A stretch of 16,062 nucleotides of DNA from a virus (Duplodnaviria > Heunggongvirae > Uroviricota > Caudoviricetes), in the IMG/VR virus record IMGVR_UViG_2698536355_000012, positions 1-16,062 of that record. One strand, written 5' to 3'. Of this stretch, positions 7,267-16,062 are shown one piece after another; position 1 is the first letter of the stretch; each line of letters opens with the position of its first letter. A program made the position numbers and the translations under genes. The notes beneath the pieces were generated by a model that worked only from the letters and a program-made list of their open reading frames with translations, made no database searches and was not told the DNA's origin.

Positions 7267-7296
7267 CAAAAAAATAGCCAAAGGTAACTTTGGCTA
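7267..7296 (-). terminator. Rho-independent terminator downstream of the repressor gene
   Basis: On the minus strand a 9 bp stem (7275-7283 pairs with 7288-7296, loop GTAA) is followed by a run of seven T (plus A7 at 7268-7274), 15 nt after the cI stop codon. Confidence 0.7.
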
Positions 7297-7310
7297 CATA
7301 TCTGGGGGGG

Positions 7311-7970
7311 TTAAATGTTCTGGGTTATTTGGACGACTTTGCCGACAATTCGGCAGTTTCCGTCAATTTGGATAGGCTTGAAAGCTGGGTTAAGTGGCAT
7401 GAGATAGGCGAATGGGCTATCCCACACTAATTTTTTTACAGTCGCTTCGGTAGAGCCTTCCAGTGTGGCAACGACTATTTTCCCGTAAAGATCATCAATT
7501 TGCCCGAAATGTGGTTCAACGATAACAATGGAACCTTCTGGAATTGATGGCAATCCATGAGGGTTAGTCATTGACTCTCCGCGGACCACTAACCCGAAAA
7601 CCTCTTCAGATACATTAGCTGTAGTTTGTGTCCATGCAATCACGTCTGTAAGCCTTGAACTGGCGTAGGTTTCTGTCCATAGACCAGCCTGAACGGCTGA
7701 TATAATAGGCACTGCTGTTGGCGGCTTAAGGAAGGGGACTAATTTGATATCATCAACGTCAGCATCTCCTTTGCCATAGAGAATCCATTCCGGGGTTACC
7801 TGAAGTACACCAGCAAGTTGGTGTAAATTCTCACCATCCGGCTTCGTTGTTCCATTCTCCCATTTCGTTACAGACACGCGACTGACCCCAAGCTTTTTGG
7901 CAAGGGTAAGCTGAGTCATATCGAGCTGGACTCGACGCGAACGAATACGGTCTTTCATCTCTGTTTTCAT
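7311..7970 (-). CDS. cI: CI-type repressor (P22 C2-like; HTH plus S24 LexA-like autopeptidase domain)
   Basis: 219 aa. N-terminal HTH (QLTLAKKLGVSRVSVTKWENG), C-terminal GESM (Ser) and VKKL (Lys) in S24 peptidase positions. Overall pattern closely parallels recalled P22 C2 (PIIS.V.AG.W, GDSM, PEG, ATVKKLV, NGNC.I.G.VV). Confidence 0.9.
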   Translation of the reverse strand: MKTEMKDRIRSRRVQLDMTQLTLAKKLGVSRVSVTKWENGTTKPDGENLHQLAGVLQVTPEWILYGKGDADVDDIKLVPFLKPPTAVPIISAVQAGLWTETYASSRLTDVIAWTQTTANVSEEVFGLVVRGESMTNPHGLPSIPEGSIVIVEPHFGQIDDLYGKIVVATLEGSTEATVKKLVWDSPFAYLMPLNPAFKPIQIDGNCRIVGKVVQITQNI

Positions 7971-8063
7971 GTAACCAATGTTACCTCTTTTGATGGTAAC
8001 TGTTGTTTGCTATTTAATGTACCTTTTGTTACCTTGTGGTGCGTAAGGTAACTAGGAGGAATC
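7971..8063. promoter_or_regulatory. Divergent immunity control region (OR with PR/PRM)
   Basis: 93 bp AT-rich intergenic between divergent cI and cro. Contains palindromic half-sites GTTACC (7980-7985) and GGTAAC (7995-8000), a third 18 bp operator repeat at 8018-8035, GGTAAC at 8047-8052, and the cro RBS AGGAGG at 8054-8059. Exact -10/-35 assignments not resolved. Confidence 0.6.
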
Positions 8064-8261
8064 ATGCGCAAATCTGAAGTCATAGAGCACTTCGGCGGAG
8101 TAGCCAAAACTGCTAATGCATTAGGTATTTCCCATCCAGCAGTTTGTCGATGGGGGGAGATCATCCCCGAGAAGCAAGCTTTTGTGATTGAGCGGATCAC
8201 GAAAGGAAAGCTCAAGTACAGCTCCGTTCTTTATCAAAAGTCTAATCAGACAGTCGCGTAA
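8064..8261 (+). CDS. cro: Cro-like repressor (P22 Cro family)
   Basis: 65 aa; VIEHFGG...ALGIS..AV..W.EIIPEK....I...T.G.LKY mirrors recalled P22 Cro (VIDHFGT...ALGISDAAVSQWKEVIPEKDAYRLEIVTAGALKY). Strong RBS AGGAGG upstream of ATG 8064. Confidence 0.85.
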   Translation: MRKSEVIEHFGGVAKTANALGISHPAVCRWGEIIPEKQAFVIERITKGKLKYSSVLYQKSNQTVA

Positions 8262-8289
8262 CGAATACCACAGAAACAAGGGGACAACC

Positions 8290-8856
8290 GTGGATAAACA
8301 ACACTGGAAAGTCGAACGACAGCCCGCCTGGCTGGTGGCTGCCATTAAACGGACTATCGCCGAAATGCCTGGTGGATATGCCGAAGCTGCTGAATGGCTT
8401 GGCCTGTATCGCGCCGGAAAAGTGTCAACCGATGCGCTCTATAACCGGCTGCGCAGCGAAGGCGATCAGATTTTCCCGCTTGAGTGGGCGATGGTGCTCC
8501 AGGATGCCAGCGGCACTAAGTACGTCACCGATGCGATAGCCCGCCGTAGCGGTGGTGTGTTTGTGCCGCTGGTGGACATTGATGACGTCGATAACGGTGA
8601 CATCAACCAGCGCCTGATGGAGTCAATCGAATGGATCGGCAGACACTCACAGTACCTGCGCAAAGCGACCGCTGACGGCGTTATTGACCCGGCAGAACGT
8701 GAGCAAATCGAAGAGAACAGTTACCAGGTGATGGCGAAGTGGCAGGAGCATCTGACGCTGCTGTTTCGTGTGTTTTGTGCGCCGGAAAAAAGTGACGCCC
8801 GCGAGTGTGCAGCTCCGGGCGCCTTGGCGAACAACTCTTCGTGTATGGAGAAATAA
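8290..8856 (+). CDS. CII/YdaT-like early regulatory protein (family assignment tentative)
   Basis: 188 aa from GTG 8290, with AAGGGG 6 nt upstream; the listed ORF start 8188 overlaps cro and is treated as an extension. Position immediately after cro is the cII position; sequence recalled as resembling CP76/YdaT-type proteins but not verified. Confidence 0.45.
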   Translation: MDKQHWKVERQPAWLVAAIKRTIAEMPGGYAEAAEWLGLYRAGKVSTDALYNRLRSEGDQIFPLEWAMVLQDASGTKYVTDAIARRSGGVFVPLVDIDDVDNGDINQRLMESIEWIGRHSQYLRKATADGVIDPAEREQIEENSYQVMAKWQEHLTLLFRVFCAPEKSDARECAAPGALANNSSCMEK

Positions 8857-9028
8857 TCCGCATGACCAGTTTAACGGCTTTTAACCGTTTACCGCAACTG
8901 AGGATGATCCCGGTGCAGGGAACTCCGCTGTTTCGGTATGAACGCAGAATATCAAACCGCTGGGTGCCATGTAACCACAGTCGGGCGGCCGCAATTGTGG
9001 GTGTTTACTACAGGAAGGCGAAACGCTT

Positions 9029-9214
9029 ATGCGCGAAGTTAACCGAAGGTTCAAAGACCACTACGGCGTGCCCGTCCGTGTTATCCGCTGGGAGCCAGAA
9101 ACGCGCCGCGTTATCTACCTGCGGGAAGGGTATCCGCATGAATGCTTCAGCCCGCTTGAGCAGTTTCAGCGCAAGTTCAGGGAGATAAAGAACGACCATG
9201 AGCCAGATATTTGA
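9029..9214 (+). CDS. Hypothetical small basic protein
   Basis: 61 aa ORF with AGGAAGG about 10 nt upstream of ATG 9029; balanced, charged composition. Overlaps the replication gene start by 17 nt. The alternative ORF 8805/8862..9188 in another frame looks less protein-like. Confidence 0.35.
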   Translation: MREVNRRFKDHYGVPVRVIRWEPETRRVIYLREGYPHECFSPLEQFQRKFREIKNDHEPDI

Positions 9215-10133
9215 AATCGTTCAATCACTGTCGGGGCAAAGGAACTGCATCACTATTCCGGTTCCGTACCTTGATTTTTTCTCGGGTGACCAACAGGCGC
9301 ATGCTTTGGGCGCAGTCCTAAACCAGCTTGTGTTCTGGTCTGGAAAATCAGACCTGAATGATGGTTGGTTTTACAAAGAGCACAGCGAGCTGGCGGAGGA
9401 GATTCACGGTGTAAGCGAAGACCAGGTACAGCGCCTGGTAAACAAGATTTGTACCCGCTGGCTACCTGATGTAGTTCAGAAAACACAGCGGCAGGTTAAC
9501 GGCACTAAAAAGACGCATTACCGTATCGATGGTGAAGCGCTAATCAACGTTTTATTCCCGCCAACACTGGTTCCCGCAGAATCGCGGAATGGGAAACGCG
9601 AAGTCGCGGAACATGTTCCGCAGAATCACGGAACAGAAAACGCAGACCCGCGGAACCCTAACCGTGAAGTCGCGGAACCTATTCTTTATACAGATCATTA
9701 CTCAGATCACCACAAACAGATCAGTAAACCTTCTTGTCCGGTTGCTGCGCAACCCGACCCGGAAGTGGTGATTACTGACCATGCGATTGAAGTTTTGCTC
9801 CATCTGAACCAGGTCAGCGGATCGCGCTACCAGAAATCAAGGACCTCGCTGGAAAACATCCGCGCCCGTCTGCGGGAAGGTTACAGCGTCAATGACCTGA
9901 AGCTGGTTATTGACCTGAAGCACGAGCACTGGAACGGCAACGATGAGCAGTACCAGTACATGCGTCCTGAAACCCTGTTTGGGCCGAAAAAGTTCGAAGG
10001 GTACCTGTCCAGCGCTACCCGCTGGGATAGCAAAGGCCGCCCGGAGCGCCAGTACTGGGATGCAGCTCGTAAGCATGATCCTGTGAAGTTCGGGCCAGTT
10101 GATACCAAGATTCCTGAGGGGTTCAGGGGATGA
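9198..10133 (+). CDS. Phage replication initiator (O-like replisome organiser with conserved phage C-terminal domain)
   Basis: 311 aa. The C-terminal YMRPETLFGPKKFEGY segment matches a recalled conserved phage replication-protein C-terminus. An iteron array lies inside the coding sequence, as with lambda O. Length and position are consistent with the intact form of KplE1 yfdO. Confidence 0.7.
   Translation: MSQIFEIVQSLSGQRNCITIPVPYLDFFSGDQQAHALGAVLNQLVFWSGKSDLNDGWFYKEHSELAEEIHGVSEDQVQRLVNKICTRWLPDVVQKTQRQVNGTKKTHYRIDGEALINVLFPPTLVPAESRNGKREVAEHVPQNHGTENADPRNPNREVAEPILYTDHYSDHHKQISKPSCPVAAQPDPEVVITDHAIEVLLHLNQVSGSRYQKSRTSLENIRARLREGYSVNDLKLVIDLKHEHWNGNDEQYQYMRPETLFGPKKFEGYLSSATRWDSKGRPERQYWDAARKHDPVKFGPVDTKIPEGFRG
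9562..9734. repeat. Candidate replication origin: iteron array with 22 bp periodicity, a 16 bp palindrome and a GATC cluster
   Basis: Five units beginning (G/A)CGGAA(C/T) at 9584, 9606, 9628, 9650 and 9672, exactly 22 bp apart, with a partial unit at 9562-9583. Perfect palindrome GCGGAACATGTTCCGC at 9606-9621. Three CAGATCA repeats at 9691-9697, 9703-9709 and 9717-9723 in a more AT-rich stretch. Confidence 0.65.
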
Positions 10134-11029
10134 ATGAAAATAAATACTGCCAGGCGCTGGCGGAAATGCGCAGCAGGAACGCGCACAAGCTGAAAGAAGT
10201 TGGCGATCAGTGGCGCACGCCGGAGCTGCTGTTCTGGGGGATTAATGCGATGTTTGGCCCGCTGGTGCTGGACCTCTTTGCCGACGACAGCAACGCTAAA
10301 TGCCCTGCCTGGTATACCGCAGAAGACAACGCGCTGACGCAGGACTGGTCTGAGCGCCTGGCGGAACTCGGCGGCGCCGCGTTTGCTAACCCGCCATACA
10401 GCCGATCGCAGTACCACGAAAAGCAGGCAATCACCGGGATGACCCACATCATTAACCACACGATGGCCATGCGAGAGAAGGGCGGTCGCTATGTGTTTCT
10501 GGTCAAAGCCGCACCAAGCGAAACATGGTGGCCGGAAGATGCAGACCACATTGTTTTCATCCGCGGTCGCATCGGTTTTGACCTTCCGGAATGGTTTGTA
10601 CCGACAGACGACAAGCAGCAGCCCACCAGCGCATTTTTTGCGGGCGCCATCGCGGTGTTTGACAAGACCTGGCGCGGCGAGCGCTTCAGCTATATCCACC
10701 GCACAGAGCTGGAGGCTAAGGGGCGGGCTTTCATGGTGCTGGCCGAATTTGCCGCGGGCAAGGTTCAGCCACCAGCAACACCGGCGCCAGCGCAGGTTGA
10801 CCCGGTTGTAGCGCCAGCAGCATTACCTGATGTTGATTCGCGCATCTGGCCGCTTGAGGTTGGGCTGGTGTTCAACCAGGTTGAGGGCGCGGATTCTCTG
10901 GATGCATCGCAGCAGAACAAGCTGAAAGCGAACATTAACCAGCTGTGGCTTGAGCGTATGCCAACCAGCGAAATCATAACGGTTGCTGGTGGACTGGTCA
11001 GCAGCATGCAGGGGGTGACCAGTGCGTGA
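10130..11029 (+). CDS. Phage Dam-type N6-adenine DNA methyltransferase with C-terminal extension
   Basis: 299 aa. N-terminal DQWRTPELLF and the catalytic-type NPPY motif (FANPPYSRS) are characteristic of phage Dam-family MTases. ATG 10130 overlaps the replication gene stop (ATGA). About 110 C-terminal residues (Pro/Ala-rich linker plus extra segment) exceed the usual family length. Confidence 0.8.
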   Translation: MNENKYCQALAEMRSRNAHKLKEVGDQWRTPELLFWGINAMFGPLVLDLFADDSNAKCPAWYTAEDNALTQDWSERLAELGGAAFANPPYSRSQYHEKQAITGMTHIINHTMAMREKGGRYVFLVKAAPSETWWPEDADHIVFIRGRIGFDLPEWFVPTDDKQQPTSAFFAGAIAVFDKTWRGERFSYIHRTELEAKGRAFMVLAEFAAGKVQPPATPAPAQVDPVVAPAALPDVDSRIWPLEVGLVFNQVEGADSLDASQQNKLKANINQLWLERMPTSEIITVAGGLVSSMQGVTSA

Positions 11030-13019
11030 AATTATCGTTGATAACTTCGCCGGCGGCGGCGGTGCGTCTACCGGGATCGAACTCGCTATAGGGCGCAGCG
11101 TGGATATTGCCATCAACCACGATGAAAACGCCATCGCCATGCACAAGACCAACCACCCCGACACGCTGCATTACTGCGAATCGGTGTTTGATGTGGATCC
11201 GGTTGCCGCCACTGGCGCGCATCCTGTTGGCCTGGCATGGTTCAGCCCCGACTGCCGCCATTTTTCAAAGGCGAAAGGCGCGAAGCCGGTGAAGAAGGAA
11301 ATCCGCGGGCTCGCGTGGGTAGTTATCCGCTGGGCGCTGGAGAAGCGACCGCGCGTGATGATGCTGGAGAACGTCGAAGAGTTTAAAACGTGGGGACCGT
11401 TGCTACGTGAAATGCCGTTCATTAGCCATGCGGAGCGTCACCTTAGCGACTTCATCGGGCCACCAGTACCAGTTGAACAGAACCCGGATCGTGCACGAGC
11501 TGGCGAGACGTTTGCAGCGTTTGTCGGCATGCTGTCGACGGGGATCCAGGCTGATCATCCGGCGCTGGCCGAGGTCTGCGAATTCCTCTCTATTGAACCT
11601 GGTAGCGGGCAGGCGCAACAGCTGGTTGCCGGGCTCGGCTATGACGTCGATTATCGCGAGCTGCGCGCGTGCGACTATGGCGCGCCGACAATCCGTCGCC
11701 GTTTCTTTATGGTCATGCGCTGCGATGGTAAAGCCATTCACTGGCCTGAACCGACCCACGGGGATCCGAAATCACTGGAGGTGCAGAGCGGCAGGCTGGC
11801 GCCGTGGCGCACCGCGGCGGAGTGTATCGACTGGAATATCCCGGCGCTGTCTATCTTCGATCGCAAAAAGCCCCTGGCAGAAAATACCCTGAAGCGTATT
11901 GCGCGCGGTATCCAGCGGTTTGTCATCGAGAGCGCCTCGCCGTTCATCGTGAAATGTAACCACACCACGACGAAAGGTAGCTATGACTGTTTTCGTGGTC
12001 AGGAGCTGGGCGCACCGCTGCAGACCATCACCAAAACCCACGGCTACGCGATAGCGGTACCGCACCTGACTAAATTCCGCACCGGCGCAACCGGGCAGCC
12101 CGTTACCGAACCGGTTCCTACGGTGACCGCCGGCACATCGGCGCGCCCGGGCGGAAATGGTCATGCCCTCGGTGTTGTTGAGGCGGAGCTGACACCATTC
12201 CTGGCTGGCAACGGCGGCAGCGAATACCAGGCGAAGCCGCGCGCGCTGAATAAGCCTGCCCACACTATCCTGAAGCAATCCCGCGCCTGCCTGGTTACGC
12301 CAGTGATTGCCCGCCAGTTCGGCGCCAGTATCGGCCACCGGGCAGACGAACCTAGCGCAACGATTACTGCGGGCGGTGGCGGTAAATCGCAGCTGGTGAC
12401 ACCGACGCTGATCCAGATGGGCTACGGTGAGCGTCCGGGGCAGGAGCCGCGCGTCCTGCAACTTAATAACCCGCTGGGAACCGTTACCGCTGGTGGCAAT
12501 AAGTTTGCAACGGTGAGCGCATTCCTGGCGAAGCACTACGGCGGGAATTATACGGGCCCGGGCGTGGGTCTGGATGAGCCAGCCCACTCCGTGACGACGG
12601 TCGATCACCATGCTGTTGTTGCCTCTCATCTGGTCAAGCTGCGCGGAACATGCCGCGACGGGCAGCGCCTGGACGAACCTATGCCAACCATCACTGCCGG
12701 CGGCCAGCACGTAGGGGAGGTTCGGACATTCCTTGAAACCTACTGCGGGGAAAGCGAAGACGAATGGCTGGTGACGATCGAGGGTGTTAAGTACCAGATT
12801 GTTGATATCGGCATGCGTATGTTGCAGCCCCATGAGTTGTATAAGGCCCAGGGTTTCCCGGATGGCTACGTTATCGATCAGGACTACCGGGGCAACCGCT
12901 ACGCGAAGGATAAGCAGGTCGCGCGCTGCGGCAACGCCGTCCCGCCACCATTCGCCCGCGCGCTGGTGGAGGCAAACTTACCTGAGATGTGCGCGGATCC
13001 GCAACGGGAGGTGGCATGA
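11022..13019 (+). CDS. DNA cytosine-5 methyltransferase, unusually large with repeat-containing variable region
   Basis: 665 aa. Motif I FAGGGGASTG, motif IV PDCRHFSKAKG (catalytic Cys), motif VI ENVEEF, motif VIII-like PTIRRRFFMV, motif IX-like LQPHELYKAQGFPDGY, motif X CGNAVPPP. GTG 11022 overlaps the Dam stop. About 370 aa lie between motifs VIII and IX, with recurring P-x-T-[IV]-T-A-G-G units. Confidence 0.85.
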   Translation: MREIIVDNFAGGGGASTGIELAIGRSVDIAINHDENAIAMHKTNHPDTLHYCESVFDVDPVAATGAHPVGLAWFSPDCRHFSKAKGAKPVKKEIRGLAWVVIRWALEKRPRVMMLENVEEFKTWGPLLREMPFISHAERHLSDFIGPPVPVEQNPDRARAGETFAAFVGMLSTGIQADHPALAEVCEFLSIEPGSGQAQQLVAGLGYDVDYRELRACDYGAPTIRRRFFMVMRCDGKAIHWPEPTHGDPKSLEVQSGRLAPWRTAAECIDWNIPALSIFDRKKPLAENTLKRIARGIQRFVIESASPFIVKCNHTTTKGSYDCFRGQELGAPLQTITKTHGYAIAVPHLTKFRTGATGQPVTEPVPTVTAGTSARPGGNGHALGVVEAELTPFLAGNGGSEYQAKPRALNKPAHTILKQSRACLVTPVIARQFGASIGHRADEPSATITAGGGGKSQLVTPTLIQMGYGERPGQEPRVLQLNNPLGTVTAGGNKFATVSAFLAKHYGGNYTGPGVGLDEPAHSVTTVDHHAVVASHLVKLRGTCRDGQRLDEPMPTITAGGQHVGEVRTFLETYCGESEDEWLVTIEGVKYQIVDIGMRMLQPHELYKAQGFPDGYVIDQDYRGNRYAKDKQVARCGNAVPPPFARALVEANLPEMCADPQREVA

Positions 13020-13402
13020 AGCTGGTGCTGCCGTTTCCCCCGAGCGTTAACACATACTGGCGCGCCCCTAACAAGGGGCCGCTGGCTGGGCGCCATCTTA
13101 TCAGTGCCGACGGCCGCAAATACCAGAGCGCGGCCTGCGCGGCGATCATTGAGCAGTTGCGCAGGCTGCCGAAGCCATCAACAGCGCCTGCTGCAGTCGA
13201 AATCACCCTGTATCCGCCGGACGCGCGCCGCCGGGATCTGGACAACTACAACAAAGCGCTGTTTGACGCGCTGACGCATGCTGGCGTGTGGGAGGACGAC
13301 AGCCAGGTAAAACGCATGCTGGTGGAGTGGGGGCCAGTGGTGCCGAAAGGCAGGGTTGAGATAACGATCAGCCAATACGAACCGGCGGGTGCAGCCGCCT
13401 GA
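13016..13402 (+). CDS. rusA: RusA Holliday junction resolvase
   Basis: Start placed at ATG 13016, overlapping the C5-MTase stop (ATGA). LPFPPSVNTYWR ... RRRDLDNYNKALFDALTHAGVWEDDSQV ... GRVEITI closely parallels recalled E. coli RusA (LPWPPSNNRYYR ... [28 protein letters not shown] ... GRLELTI). Confidence 0.9.
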   Translation: MKLVLPFPPSVNTYWRAPNKGPLAGRHLISADGRKYQSAACAAIIEQLRRLPKPSTAPAAVEITLYPPDARRRDLDNYNKALFDALTHAGVWEDDSQVKRMLVEWGPVVPKGRVEITISQYEPAGAAA

Positions 13403-13416
13403 TATGGAGAAATAGC

Positions 13417-13713
13417 ATGAGCAAACTTAGAGGATTGGTGTGTAGGCCTGATTTTTTGACTATTAGCAGTAATGAGATTGCCAAGGAATTTGGTAAACGA
13501 CATGACAATGTACTTCAGGATATCAGAAGAATTCTTCGCTCCCTGAATCTTCCAGAGGACCACCTTGCAGGGGAATACGCGGATGAAAGAGGAAGGCTCT
13601 ACCCATGTTTCAGGCTTGATAAGAGACTTGCATTGGTGTTGCTTACCTCGTACGACAACGTCTCACGTCTTAAGGTAATTGAATATTTTATTGAAAACGG
13701 AGGGCGCCTGTGA
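13417..13713 (+). CDS. Rha-family N-terminal domain protein (short paralog)
   Basis: 98 aa, GGAGA 6 nt upstream of ATG 13417. Clearly paralogous to the N-terminal ~90 aa of the next gene (EIA...KRHD.V..DIR..L..LN....F.G.Y.D.RGR.YP...L.K.L.L.L...Y...). Visibly more AT-rich than neighbouring genes. Confidence 0.7.
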   Translation: MSKLRGLVCRPDFLTISSNEIAKEFGKRHDNVLQDIRRILRSLNLPEDHLAGEYADERGRLYPCFRLDKRLALVLLTSYDNVSRLKVIEYFIENGGRL

Positions 13714-14411
13714 AAAGTCTAGTGAATGTTAAGAGTGATCCCGGCTTCCCTGCAATGTCCAGCCTGGAGATCGCCGGGTTGTGTGATAAGCGACACGACC
13801 ATGTAATGGCTGATATTCGCAATATGCTCGAACAGCTCAATATTCAATCTCCCGAGTTTTCGGGAGATTACCGGGACGACCGCGGGCGCTGTTATCCGCT
13901 TTACCACCTGCCAAAAGACTTATGCCTTACGCTGGTCTCCGGGTACAACGTGGTGCTGCGTAAACGCATTATCGATCGCTGGCTTGAGCTGGAGAACGGT
14001 CAGCAGGTCAGTGTGCCGCAGTCACTCCCGGAAGCGCTTCGCCTGGCGGCAGACCTCGCTGAGCAGAAAGAGCAACTGACCCAGCAGCTGGCCGCCGCGG
14101 CGCCAAAGGTCGAGTTTGTCGATCGCTACTGTACCGCGAAAGGGTCAATGTCGTTTCGCCAGGTGGCAAAGCTCCTGAACGCCAAAGAGACCGACTTCCG
14201 TCTGTTCCTCATCGACAGCGACATCATGTACCGCCTCGGGGGCGTACTGACCCCGCGGCACCAGCACATTAACGCCGGGCGGTTTGAGGTAAAAACCGGG
14301 ACCACCAGTGAATCGAACTATGCATTCAGCCAGGCGCGCTTTACCGCAAAAGGCGTTGAGTGGATCGGTGGCCTGTGGACGGCGCATATCGCTAAGGGGC
14401 ATGCCGCGTGA
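13710..14411 (+). CDS. Rha-family phage regulatory protein / antirepressor with C-terminal KilAC-like domain
   Basis: 233 aa; GTG 13710 overlaps the upstream stop, GGAGG 6 nt upstream. N-terminal Rha-like domain plus a C-terminal region typical of antirepressor (AntA/AntB, KilAC) proteins; domain names from recall. Confidence 0.7.
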   Translation: MKSLVNVKSDPGFPAMSSLEIAGLCDKRHDHVMADIRNMLEQLNIQSPEFSGDYRDDRGRCYPLYHLPKDLCLTLVSGYNVVLRKRIIDRWLELENGQQVSVPQSLPEALRLAADLAEQKEQLTQQLAAAAPKVEFVDRYCTAKGSMSFRQVAKLLNAKETDFRLFLIDSDIMYRLGGVLTPRHQHINAGRFEVKTGTTSESNYAFSQARFTAKGVEWIGGLWTAHIAKGHAA

Positions 14412-15469
14412 GAGCACTGCTGACAGCCGAAACGGTACCGCGCCTCGGCCTGGTGCTGCTGAAGCCGGGTAAAGACCTGATGCGCCTGTTCAGTGGCGGC
14501 CGTGTGCTGGTGGAGTCCGAGCCCAGGAGTATGGCCGCGCTTCCGTCAGGCCGTGTTCCCGATGCCCGGCAGCCGCTGGCTGATGATCCGCTTCTTATTT
14601 CCTTCTTCACCGACGAGCGGGTCATACGCGCCGCCGGCGGATTGCCCGGGCTCGAGTCCTGGCTGCTGCACCGTGTGCGTCAGTGCCAGTATCAGCACTC
14701 CGGCTACCACCATAAGGAGCTGGTCACAATGCGCCACCCGCCCGGGGCGATGGTGCTGTGCTGGCATTGCGATAACGAGCTACGCCAGCAAACGACAGAG
14801 CAGCTGGCGGAGCTGGCGCGCCGTAACGTTGTCGCCTGGGTGATCGATACCGTTCTGGCAGCGCTGGGTTTCAATAATGAGCGGGAATTGTCGCTGGGTG
14901 AGCTGTGCTGGTGGGCGGTCTGTGCAGGTATCGCCGGTGCAATCCCTGAAACGATGGCCCGCCGCGCGCTGCAGATGCCTGATGAGCCGTTTCTGCCGTT
15001 TTACCGGGAAAGCGATATTGTGCCAATGCCGCCGGCCACCAGCATCCTGCAGGAGAAGGCTGCAACCGCAGGAGCAGTAAAACAGCGCAGGAGCAGCACA
15101 AACCCGCAGGAGGTGCAGAAGCAGCCCGCAGTGCTGGCGCTGAGGATCGATCCGGAATCGCCGGAATCATTCATGCTGCGACCGAAGCGCCGCCGCTGGG
15201 TAAACGAGAAATACACCCGCTGGGTAAAGGTTCAGCCCTGTGAAGGTTGCCGCCGTCCGGCAGACGACCCGCACCATATCATCGGGCATGGTATGGGCGG
15301 TACAGCCACAAAAGCCCACGACCTCTTCGTGATCCCTCTGTGCAGAGAGTGCCACGACGAGTTGCACGCCGATGTAGCGGCATTCGAGAAGAAGCACGGC
15401 ACGCAGCTGGAGCTGCTGTTTCGTGTTCTGGATCGGGCGCTGGCGATCGGCGTAATTGTAAAAGCTTAA
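14408..15469 (+). CDS. NinG/DUF968-like protein with C-terminal HNH-like Cys/His motif
   Basis: 353 aa; GTG 14408 overlaps the upstream stop. C-terminus CEGCRRPADDPHHIIGHGMGG...CRECHDELH resembles the zinc/HNH-like motif of DUF968-type phage proteins usually found between rusA/nin genes and Q. Confidence 0.55.
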   Translation: MRALLTAETVPRLGLVLLKPGKDLMRLFSGGRVLVESEPRSMAALPSGRVPDARQPLADDPLLISFFTDERVIRAAGGLPGLESWLLHRVRQCQYQHSGYHHKELVTMRHPPGAMVLCWHCDNELRQQTTEQLAELARRNVVAWVIDTVLAALGFNNERELSLGELCWWAVCAGIAGAIPETMARRALQMPDEPFLPFYRESDIVPMPPATSILQEKAATAGAVKQRRSSTNPQEVQKQPAVLALRIDPESPESFMLRPKRRRWVNEKYTRWVKVQPCEGCRRPADDPHHIIGHGMGGTATKAHDLFVIPLCRECHDELHADVAAFEKKHGTQLELLFRVLDRALAIGVIVKA

Positions 15470-15483
15470 GTATGGAGAGCAGA

Positions 15484-16062
15484 ATGATCAATCCTTCAGT
15501 AGTTGGTAAAAGCGATGAAATGGTGCGCTTACGTACACTTGAGAGCGTCTGGATTCAAGGGAAATTGAGAATGTGGGGATGCTGGTCCTGCATTGGTAGC
15601 GGTTCTGGAGGCAACATGTTTAACCAGTTGTTGGCATCAGGAAAAGTTACCAAAACAGCTATTAACGATGCTATTCGCCGTATGAAAAAATCTGGTATTA
15701 CCAAACCTGAGTTGGAAGCGTTTTTCCTCGAAATTCTCAGGGGAAAGAAAAAAAGCAATCTTGCGTTCTGCACGGATGAGGAAGGACTGGCGACTGACGC
15801 CGTCCTCAGTGAAGTGCTGGTGCGTCCTGGGCACAAGCGTTTGTACCATGTAATTAGTGATCGCTATCGTTATCGAATGAGTAAGAAGGAAATGGCTCGA
15901 CAATTAAACGAGCGACATCCTGAATGGTGCTTGCGAACATGTGAAAGCAGAATTGATGTCTGGTTAAATATGGCGGAATCGATGCTATATCAACCAATGT
16001 GTGATGCTTTCGACACAAATGGCGACAGATTTTCATTGACGGATTGCGCAGAAACTGCTTAA
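15484..16062 (+). CDS. Putative late-gene antiterminator Q-like protein
   Basis: 192 aa from ATG 15484 (GGAGAG upstream); the listed ORF start 15247 overlaps the previous gene and is treated as an extension. Last gene of the early-right operon, basic with a Cys cluster (WGCWSC). Assignment is by position and general character, not verified similarity. Confidence 0.45.
   Translation: MINPSVVGKSDEMVRLRTLESVWIQGKLRMWGCWSCIGSGSGGNMFNQLLASGKVTKTAINDAIRRMKKSGITKPELEAFFLEILRGKKKSNLAFCTDEEGLATDAVLSEVLVRPGHKRLYHVISDRYRYRMSKKEMARQLNERHPEWCLRTCESRIDVWLNMAESMLYQPMCDAFDTNGDRFSLTDCAETA

Follow-up and report, generated by a model that had tools for sequence, protein, structure and literature searches.

A lambdoid prophage module with a predicted origin inside its initiator gene, two orphan methyltransferases and no recognisable helicase loader

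Delivery of the replicative helicase is well worked out for phage lambda, which uses its P protein, for P22, which brings its own DnaB-type helicase, and for the bacterial origin oriC, where DnaA and DnaC do the work. How is the helicase delivered when a phage initiator gene is accompanied by none of these? The question is raised by a 16,062-nt stretch of DNA from a tailed phage (Caudoviricetes; IMG/VR record IMGVR_UViG_2698536355_000012, positions 1–16,062; referred to as the window), in which a replication initiator gene is followed by genes for a Dam-type adenine methyltransferase (MTase), a C5-cytosine MTase and the Holliday-junction resolvase RusA. The element is the integrase-to-Q half of a lambdoid prophage and contains the early-right operon of the common ST64B/SfV/CPS-53-type enterobacterial group. 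A preliminary description made from the sequence alone had proposed that the four genes are co-expressed, that the two MTases take the place of a helicase loader and serve against restriction, possibly with a link to origin control, and that the phage relies on the host for helicase loading. The explanation that we find best overall, and consider fairly probable, is an initiator-only module of lambda style: helicase and loader would come from the host, as DnaB and DnaC, and the MTases would be accessory genes that counter restriction.

The search for a helicase loader

The relatives of the window are Salmonella phage ST64B, Shigella phages SfIV and SfV, Citrobacter phage phiNP, Escherichia phage Eeyore and the E. 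coli K-12 cryptic prophage CPS-53. The group has the same gene order as the window, with YfdP/YfdQ/YfdR genes on the left and, on the right, cI-cro-cII, the initiator, one or more MTases, RusA or Ant, DUF968 and Q. In the window, the left operon encodes an integrase, a LexA-like protein, a 3'-5' exonuclease, an HNH protein, YfdR, YfdQ and YfdP; the right arm reads cI, cro, cII (CP76), DUF4222, initiator, Dam, C5, RusA, Rha, Ant, DUF968 and Q. The replication genes compared were yfdO-yfdN-yfdM and yfdP-T for CPS-53 and sb42-sb45 for ST64B. Across the group, the Dam, C5 and RusA genes show about 81% nucleotide identity to those of the window. The window differs from phiNP, Eeyore, SfIV and ST64B in its initiator N-terminal domain and in the type of its origin repeats (iterons).

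In typical lambdoid prophages, either a loader of the lambda P or DnaC type or a helicase of the DnaB type is present (PMC2669165). Among the substantial open reading frames (ORFs) of the window scanned with Pfam, PHROGs and PADLOC, a few short ORFs lying outside the scan, we found no match to the lambda P, DnaC/IstB, DnaB, primase or PriA families, and nothing of the P, DnaC or DnaB type adjoins the initiator in the window or in its complete relatives. The earlier statement that no helicase loader is evident is thus upheld. The preliminary description had also pointed to the rest of the prophage as the place where a loader might be found. The window's own prophage can be traced for about 4 kb beyond the window end, up to the lysis genes, and the check was therefore run on relatives: no loader is annotated in the complete genomes of phiNP (54 features) and Eeyore (72 features) or in 44 kb around a related E. 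coli prophage (annotated by PGAP). A recognised loader is also absent from the related loci of Citrobacter, Serratia, Sodalis and Cedecea, nor did one turn up in the initiator-flanking regions that were inspected in ST64B, SfIV and a Providencia phage, PSTRCR_117lys. An 'AAA family ATPase' encoded next to the integrase gene of phiNP was considered and rejected, its domains being AAA_15/AAA_21/SMC-like as in defence ATPases, and not DnaC/IstB. A 140-aa insertion ahead of the C-terminal domain in long Dam variants (439–444 aa; Citrobacter and Eeyore), considered as a hidden loader domain, has no Pfam match.

The genes that follow the initiator vary widely within this set. The next gene is Dam in Citrobacter, a PerC-like gene, absent from this position in the window, in ST64B and SfIV, and a 574-aa C5–Dam fusion in the Providencia phage; SfIV has no MTase at the post-initiator position. 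In three further loci a small ORF comes first, followed by Dam and C5 in Cedecea, by a PF01555 MTase in Serratia, and by PerC and then a 1031-aa fusion of C5, PAPS-reductase and Dam domains in Sodalis. Because the ST64B/SfV/CPS-53 lineage is without a loader irrespective of the downstream gene, the MTases are not loader replacements, and the proposal that they occupy a loader's place does not hold in a functional sense. To judge from gene content, the entire lineage is initiator-only, and an accessory, nin-like region begins with the MTases.

Could the loader gene simply have been deleted from a defective prophage? Such decay does occur in the group: in the decayed relative CPS-53, only fragments of the initiator and of Dam are left, YfdO and YfdM, the latter a 76%-identical N-terminal fragment of the window Dam. 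For the window, however, this explanation is close to refuted. All its genes are intact, the gene junctions are nucleotide-exact in relatives, and an identical initiator protein appears in 66 index blocks of an assembly collection. Moreover, loader-less modules are present in phiNP, Eeyore, ST64B, SfIV and the Providencia phage, all deposited as complete phage genomes, and related modules therefore occur outside prophage remnants.

A predicted origin inside the initiator gene

By its sequence organization, the initiator gene carries its own lambda-style origin (Table 1). Five phased iterons, each an imperfect dyad, are followed by an AT-rich probable unwinding region, the segment of lowest GC content (0.38, at 9670–9729) in a profile of positions 8800–13600. 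The ACAGATC repeats of the AT-rich region are spaced 12 and 14 bp apart. The origin DNA encodes the disordered linker of the initiator (residues 123–181), and the whole block is kept at the DNA level across the Citrobacter, E. coli, Serratia, Sodalis and Cedecea loci, that is, in five genera. Both the position of the origin, in the linker-coding part of the initiator gene, and its layout, several phased dyad iterons and then an AT-rich region, are those of lambda O and ori-lambda. There are also differences. The lambda origin has four 19-bp iterons as against the five 22-bp units of the window, the AT-rich region of the window bears GATC repeats, and no P gene follows the window initiator.

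The initiator itself is likewise lambda-like in its architecture. It matches PHROG families of replication initiation proteins (9.9e-53) and 'O-like' proteins (1.7e-33), and its AlphaFold model consists of two domains joined by a flexible linker: a winged helix (residues ~20–120), the 59-residue disordered linker, and a helical domain (188–278) with a predicted local distance difference test (pLDDT) score of about 90 in the bundle. Sequence searches against solved structures returned only noise for the initiator (E at least 1.8) and also for a profile of its C-terminal domain, whose best hit was a release factor at E 0.031. Homologues combine this N-terminal domain and origin with C-terminal domains of three kinds: Phg_2220_C, which is that of the window, a lambda-O-like domain (34% identity to lambda O, E 1e-18; P0049 is one such relative), and a third type. 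Thus, as in lambda, the N-terminal DNA-binding domain and the iterons appear to move as one specificity cassette with a swappable C-terminal domain, and close relatives with the N-terminus of the window bear a true lambda-O-like C-terminus. The Phg_2220_C domain of the window is different: in hhalign comparisons with lambda-O-like C-termini, the extreme tail can be aligned and the core cannot.

It is this tail that attracts attention. The window initiator ends in IPEGFRG, and a tail of the form DYSxIPxGFRG, spanning the last ~12 codons, is common to initiators with unrelated cores and with different downstream genes, either Dam or PerC (P0049, P0054, P0055 and SfIV gp41). Because it is common to such different initiators, we regard the IPxGFRG tail as a candidate interaction peptide. 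An alternative tail of about 70 aa (ERDAAY...WNxIW...GGKAA) was seen on all three core types, and a small ORF of 80–156 aa always comes next downstream of it. We found nothing usable in the literature on Phg_2220_C/TIGR02220 initiators or on the specificity of PF05869 enzymes.

Taken at face value, these features suggest how replication might start. As with lambda O, dimers of the initiator would occupy the iterons and melt the adjoining AT-rich region, and the C-terminal domain, the IPxGFRG tail or both would recruit host DnaB–DnaC directly, in the manner of iteron-plasmid initiators. The iteron plasmids RK2, pSC101 and P1 rely on host DnaB–DnaC, and their systems (RK2 TrfA, pSC101 RepA, P1 RepA/oriR) combine, as the window does, an initiator, iterons and an AT-rich region with no helicase or loader of their own; P1 oriR also has GATC repeats in its unwinding region. 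The parallel has its limits, as the plasmid origins use DnaA boxes, none of which is evident in the window origin, and the initiator of the window pairs a winged helix with Phg_2220_C whereas RepA/TrfA-type proteins have tandem winged helices.

The left operon may contribute to the same process. E. coli K-12 YfdR, of which the window encodes a homologue (Table 1), binds DnaA through Phe46 and moderately inhibits DnaA–DnaB and DnaA–DiaA binding, multicopy yfdQRST blocks initiation at oriC, and the authors of that study liken the effect to the inhibition of DnaA by lambda P (PMC4776307). YfdQ is a member of the published yfdQRST cluster and YfdP its neighbour in CPS-53. The window YfdR is a candidate inhibitor of host replication and may work in concert with the loader-less module. 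YfdQ and YfdR would then damp DnaA-dependent helicase loading at oriC, which is the second job of lambda P.

A different route would be through the host restart primosome (PriA/PriB/DnaT/DnaC), acting at an R-loop or D-loop formed at the origin by rightward transcription or recombination, with the initiator as a DnaD/DnaT-like adaptor. The winged-helix N-terminal domain is of the kind found in DnaD-like replisome organisers, related initiators are annotated as 'primosomal protein', and PHROG families of 'DnaD-like helicase loaders' match at 2.1e-14 and 3.6e-7. The origin lies within a transcribed gene, and RusA in the overlapping gene chain, together with a gene of the 3'-5' exonuclease family in the left operon, would fit recombination-linked replication. 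Nevertheless, the structural similarity of the initiator C-terminal domain to the DnaD C-terminal (DDBH2) fold is weak, and five phased dyad iterons beside an AT-rich stretch are a hallmark of lambda-like direct origin opening. We consider the restart route quite unlikely.

Alternatively, the phage may encode a loader of an unrecognised kind that recruits or remodels DnaB, the candidates being DUF4222, YfdP, YfdQ, the ORFs at 2317–3033 and 3519–4223, and the C-terminal domain of ~60 aa in Dam. Known loaders are diverse and some, such as SPP1 G39P and P2 B, are small. DUF4222 runs into the start of the initiator gene and is found ahead of it in most relatives, with two copies in the Serratia locus; conservation of the Dam C-terminal domain exceeds that of the linker before it, and the domain lies outside the Pfam Dam match; and the long alternative initiator tail always precedes a small ORF. 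On the other hand, no candidate is universal, as DUF4222 is absent from the Cedecea locus and unannotated in phiNP and Eeyore, and SfIV has no Dam beside its initiator. Nor do the candidates match a loader family in Pfam, PHROGs, NCBIfam or PADLOC. On balance a hidden loader seems rather unlikely, and direct capture of host DnaB–DnaC by the initiator remains the reading that we prefer.

Table 1. Predicted features of the replication module and of the left operon (positions in the window; E-values and bit scores from the searches named)
Feature	Position	Strand	Evidence and remarks
Replication initiator (311 aa)	9198–10133	+	PF09524/TIGR02220 (Phg_2220_C), 82.6 bits
Five iterons, 22-bp period, imperfect dyad GTTCCG-N8-CGGAAC	9570–9679		Repeat family D1; each unit has 16–18 of 22 consensus positions
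AT-rich probable unwinding region, three ACAGATC repeats	9680–9735		GATC at 9693, 9705 and 9719
Dam-type N6-adenine MTase (299 aa)	10130–11029	+	PF05869 149.5 bits (cut-off 28.1), 9.6e-44; TIGR01712 equivalog 202.6 bits (cut-off 97.05), 2.7e-60; PADLOC MTase_II 604 bits
C5-cytosine MTase (665 aa)	11022–13019	+	PF00145 75.8 bits; closest solved chain 3g7u, E 2.3e-7
Seven tandem target-recognition-like modules in the C5 MTase	11997–12746	+	Residues ~326–575; consensus L-[DN]-E-P-x-x-T-[IV]-T-A-G-G ... h-V
RusA Holliday-junction resolvase (128 aa)	13016–13402	+	PF05866 63.5 bits (cut-off 22.8), 3.8e-17; phrog_34, 1e-57
DUF4222 small gene (61 aa)	9029–9214	+	PF13973, E 1.1e-17; phrog_1343; first in the overlapping chain; overlaps the initiator start by 17 nt
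YfdR homologue (HD-domain protein)	4429–4962	-	66% identical to E. coli K-12 YfdR over full length, tblastn E 1.8e-82; phrog_318
YfdQ homologue (DUF2303)	5099–5929	-	tblastn 55% identity; PF10065
YfdP homologue	5983–6354	-	tblastn 59% identity; PF27127 in contig annotation

Two orphan methyltransferases

What, then, do the MTases do? The C5 enzyme has all the motifs of its class that we looked for intact: I (FAGGG at 9), IV (SPDC, 75–78), VI (ENV, 116), VIII (RRR, 225), IX (QGFP, 610) and X (GNA, 637). Its unusual part is the array of target-recognition-like modules that sits between motifs VIII and IX (Table 1). Among 120 close homologues of 591–714 aa, the number of modules ranges from 6 to 9, whole modules being cleanly inserted or deleted; homologues at 77–89% identity show this range.

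In Bacillus phage MTases, tandem target-recognition domains confer several specificities (PMC8936443). Like M.SPRI, M.Rho11sI, M.Phi3TI and M.H2I, the window enzyme is an orphan C5 MTase carried by a phage, and short modules in tandem make up its variable region between motifs VIII and IX; the modules have a core of P-x-x-T-[ILV]-T ... G-G ... h-V and differ in number from one relative to another through gain and loss. Compared with the modules of the multispecific SPR and rho11s MTases, those of the window have the same shape, although sequence similarity is weak, with a best local match of 46% over 24 aa (E 0.005). The window enzyme also differs in having seven modules, where the same loose pattern finds two stretches in SPR and four in rho11s, in an extra insertion of ~75 aa between motifs VI and VIII, and in that the host of the phage is Gram-negative. 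With these reservations, the window C5 enzyme may be multispecific.

The Dam-type enzyme agrees with the PF05869/TIGR01712 phage Dam family in its full-length model match, its intact NPPY motif and its lack of a restriction partner. It consists of a catalytic domain (residues 19–199, which is also the extent of the Pfam match), a Pro/Ala linker and a conserved C-terminal domain of ~60 aa (from about 233–237 to 293; 10826–11008). The catalytic residues N87-P88-P89-Y90 are invariant in an alignment with four relatives, and the C-terminal domain is near-invariant among Dam proteins that are 78–84% identical overall. This extra domain sets the window Dam apart from the family, as do the 140-aa insertion of some relatives and the fusion to a C5 MTase in two others, one of them with a PAPS-reductase domain as well. 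The fusions, a 1031-aa protein in the Sodalis prophage (6720–9815) and a 574-aa protein in PSTRCR_117lys (5140–6864), are independent of each other and argue that C5 and Dam enzymes work as one unit. The fusion gene of PSTRCR_117lys is annotated merely as 'DNA-cytosine methyltransferase'.

Neither Pfam nor PADLOC detected a restriction endonuclease partner in the substantial window ORFs scanned or in one additional gene tested, which encodes a 301-aa protein just past the window end. The description of the two MTases as orphans is thus confirmed within this range. HNH and DUF968 genes are also present in SfIV, where no MTase follows the initiator. The anti-restriction role proposed earlier gains in strength, as a multi-module C5 enzyme and C5–Dam fusions in relatives suggest broad-spectrum protection. 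In the explanation favoured here, the Dam-type and multi-module C5 enzymes, expressed from the same rightward early transcript as the initiator, would methylate progeny DNA, probably at several cytosine motifs simultaneously, so that it is shielded from restriction on entering another host, while RusA would resolve intermediates of recombination-dependent replication.

The other suggestion, that methylation is tied to origin control, remains a guess. In P1 oriR and E. coli oriC, GATC-rich unwinding regions are governed by Dam and SeqA. By analogy, methylation of the GATC sites in the window's unwinding region could be needed for firing, or SeqA could sequester the hemimethylated sites, with the co-translated Dam remethylating them for lytic re-firing. 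We take the window Dam to be GATC-specific, as are the family members T1, HP1 and VT2-Sa Dam. The three ACAGATC repeats lie beside the iterons in the segment of lowest GC content, and at least three GATC sites in that specified 60 nt appeared in only 2 of 1000 dinucleotide shuffles. The GATC at gene position 496 is conserved in all six loci compared, and those at 508 and 522 in five of the six each. The sites survive divergence of the iterons or of the C-terminal domains: three GATC repeats are present even in the Providencia phage, with its diverged iterons and an initiator of 47% identity, and the second, unrelated iteron type of phiNP, Eeyore and SfIV has two GATC sites directly past the iterons. 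Yet three GATC sites within 30 nt somewhere in the 16-kb sequence are not uncommon (122 of 1000 shuffles), the host brings its own Dam, and the specificity of the phage enzyme is assumed from its family. Furthermore, the GATC sites and the enzyme do not go together. In the Serratia locus this GATC origin is accompanied by a PF01555 MTase in place of the PF05869 enzyme, SfIV has GATC sites and no adjacent MTase, and ST64B has Dam and an origin without GATC at this place. Origin control by methylation is speculative and, in our estimate, unlikely; the conserved GATC triplet is a new finding in its favour and offers the idea a definite target.

Several points weigh against the explanation of an initiator-only module with accessory MTases. 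It depends on a contact of the initiator with DnaB or DnaC that we infer by analogy. The origin contains no DnaA box with one mismatch or fewer, which leaves help from DnaA unsupported, and dependence of the origin on DnaA was dropped as an idea on the same grounds. Homologues of YfdS and YfdT, which are needed together with YfdQR for the published effect on oriC, were undetected in the window. The loader candidates named above, as well as the short ORFs outside the scan, could still hide a loader. Finally, the resemblance of the C5 modules to Bacillus phage target-recognition domains is short and weak in sequence, and the specificities of both MTases are predicted only.

A more elaborate combination of these elements can be envisaged, in which the jobs of lambda P are split. 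The tail common to three unrelated C-terminal domains would capture DnaB–DnaC, YfdQ and YfdR would block the DnaA–DnaB interaction at oriC, GATC methylation, reset by the phage Dam, would gate firing, and the C5 enzyme would represent the first multispecific cytosine MTase family outside Bacillus phages. That all of this holds jointly is improbable.

Further modification genes are found in the group. In phiNP (26246–27298), Eeyore (20317–21369) and the E. coli prophage (28639–29691), a third MTase gene lies between Q and the lysis genes, and phiNP has a fourth in its left operon, giving totals of three or four MTases. In the window, residues 119–214 of the 234-aa protein encoded at 3519–4223 (minus strand) match the PADLOC model of DpdH, a protein of 7-deazaguanine DNA modification (Dpd), at E 1.5e-39, with nothing above the Pfam threshold. 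The same operon of Eeyore includes a queuine tRNA-ribosyltransferase-like gene. Together, the two observations hint at a second DNA-modification theme in this phage group.

Gene packing, neighbouring genes and wider meaning

We also asked whether the overlaps between the four genes set them apart. The four plus-strand ORFs and their overlaps are exactly as first described: ATGA at 10130–10133, GTG at 11022–11024 with TGA at 11027–11029 (8 nt), and ATGA at 13016–13019. Of the possible starts of the C5 gene, GTG 11022 alone retains motif I (FAGGGG, residues 9–14). Each start is preceded, within the upstream gene, by a purine-rich Shine-Dalgarno-like run (GAGGGG/AGGGG, AGGGGG and GGGAGGTGG, respectively). 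The arrangement expected of a coupled operon, with stop/start overlaps of 4, 8 and 4 nt and a ribosome-binding-like run in the upstream gene, is repeated in phiNP, Eeyore, the E. coli prophage and the Cedecea locus at ~80% nucleotide identity. No promoter-like or terminator-like site was seen on the plus strand within 8857–13402. Since the overlaps are kept in relatives and internal promoter or terminator signals are lacking, co-expression of the four genes is likely. What does not stand is the view of the overlaps as a feature particular to these genes. They fail to single out the four because overlaps are found at 6 of the 9 junctions of the rightward operon, among them 17 nt at DUF4222/initiator and 4 nt each at Rha/Ant and Ant/DUF968, and the genes of the leftward operon tend to overlap as well. 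Such overlaps belong to the operon as a whole and reflect the close packing usual for phage genes, which would keep the products co-expressed.

The DUF4222 gene at the head of the chain is found upstream of the initiator in most relatives, though not in all, and substitutions relative to three of them fall on codon position 3 of its frame. A 107-aa ORF at 8865–9188 (plus strand), which matches phrog_1170 (1.5e-21), was considered as an accessory replication gene and rejected, as substitutions fall on its codon position 2, marking it as a shadow of the DUF4222 frame. The annotation of Eeyore uses the longer ORF of the 8865–9188 type rather than the DUF4222 frame. The phrog_1170 family would thus appear to be a database entry built on a shadow ORF. 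Between cII and DUF4222, about 170 nt (8857–9028) are conserved above the level of the flanking coding DNA, with 9 mismatches each to Eeyore and to the E. coli prophage and no codon periodicity. This segment occupies the place that the oop antisense RNA has in lambda, matches no Rfam family and shows neither promoter-like nor terminator-like sites; it may have a regulatory role. In the entire window, too, scans for Rfam families and tRNAs gave no match.

Downstream of RusA are tandem Rha-domain genes at 13417–13713 and 13710–14411 (plus strand), the first of which (98 aa) reproduces, in shortened form, the N-terminal region of the second (Rha + KilAC/ANT). It lies in a patch of low GC content (0.33–0.40 at 13420–13540, against a window mean of 0.54) and looks like a recent insertion or partial duplication. 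At the other end, source contigs have a second, different integrase gene (contig 1–475) directly past the prophage integrase (804–1979, corresponding to window 1–1176), and the two adjoining integrases suggest tandem integrated elements at one attachment site. The 301-aa gene past the window end lies on the reverse strand, ~80 nt beyond it (source contig 16942–17847), between Q and the holin genes, the usual position of cargo genes (morons); its product has no Pfam or PADLOC match.

In its gene content the module is ordinary, and it has been present in annotated phage genomes for two decades. The exact C5 protein carries an E. coli label in NCBI; among complete E. coli genomes, the best match to the window reaches 82% identity and a related module occurs in 45 of 5426. 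Newly described are the origin within the initiator gene, the three swapped C-terminal domains, the seven-module C5 MTase, the C5–Dam fusions and YfdR in the left operon.

The interest of these findings lies mainly in the route of helicase loading in this group and in a possible multispecific MTase outside Bacillus phages. The ST64B/SfV/CPS-53 prophage group is large and common in Salmonella, Shigella, E. coli, Citrobacter, Enterobacter and Klebsiella. It is without a recognisable loader under any of its initiator C-terminal domains, while encoding the DnaA-binding YfdR. This opens the hypothesis that the initiator captures DnaB–DnaC directly and that this is combined with inhibition of helicase loading at oriC. 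In addition, the abundant prophage C5 MTase of 600–715 aa with its variable module array may be a broad-spectrum anti-restriction enzyme. If so, its breadth would affect how phage and transduced DNA cross restriction barriers and how the 5-methylcytosine (5mC) methylomes of lysogens are read.

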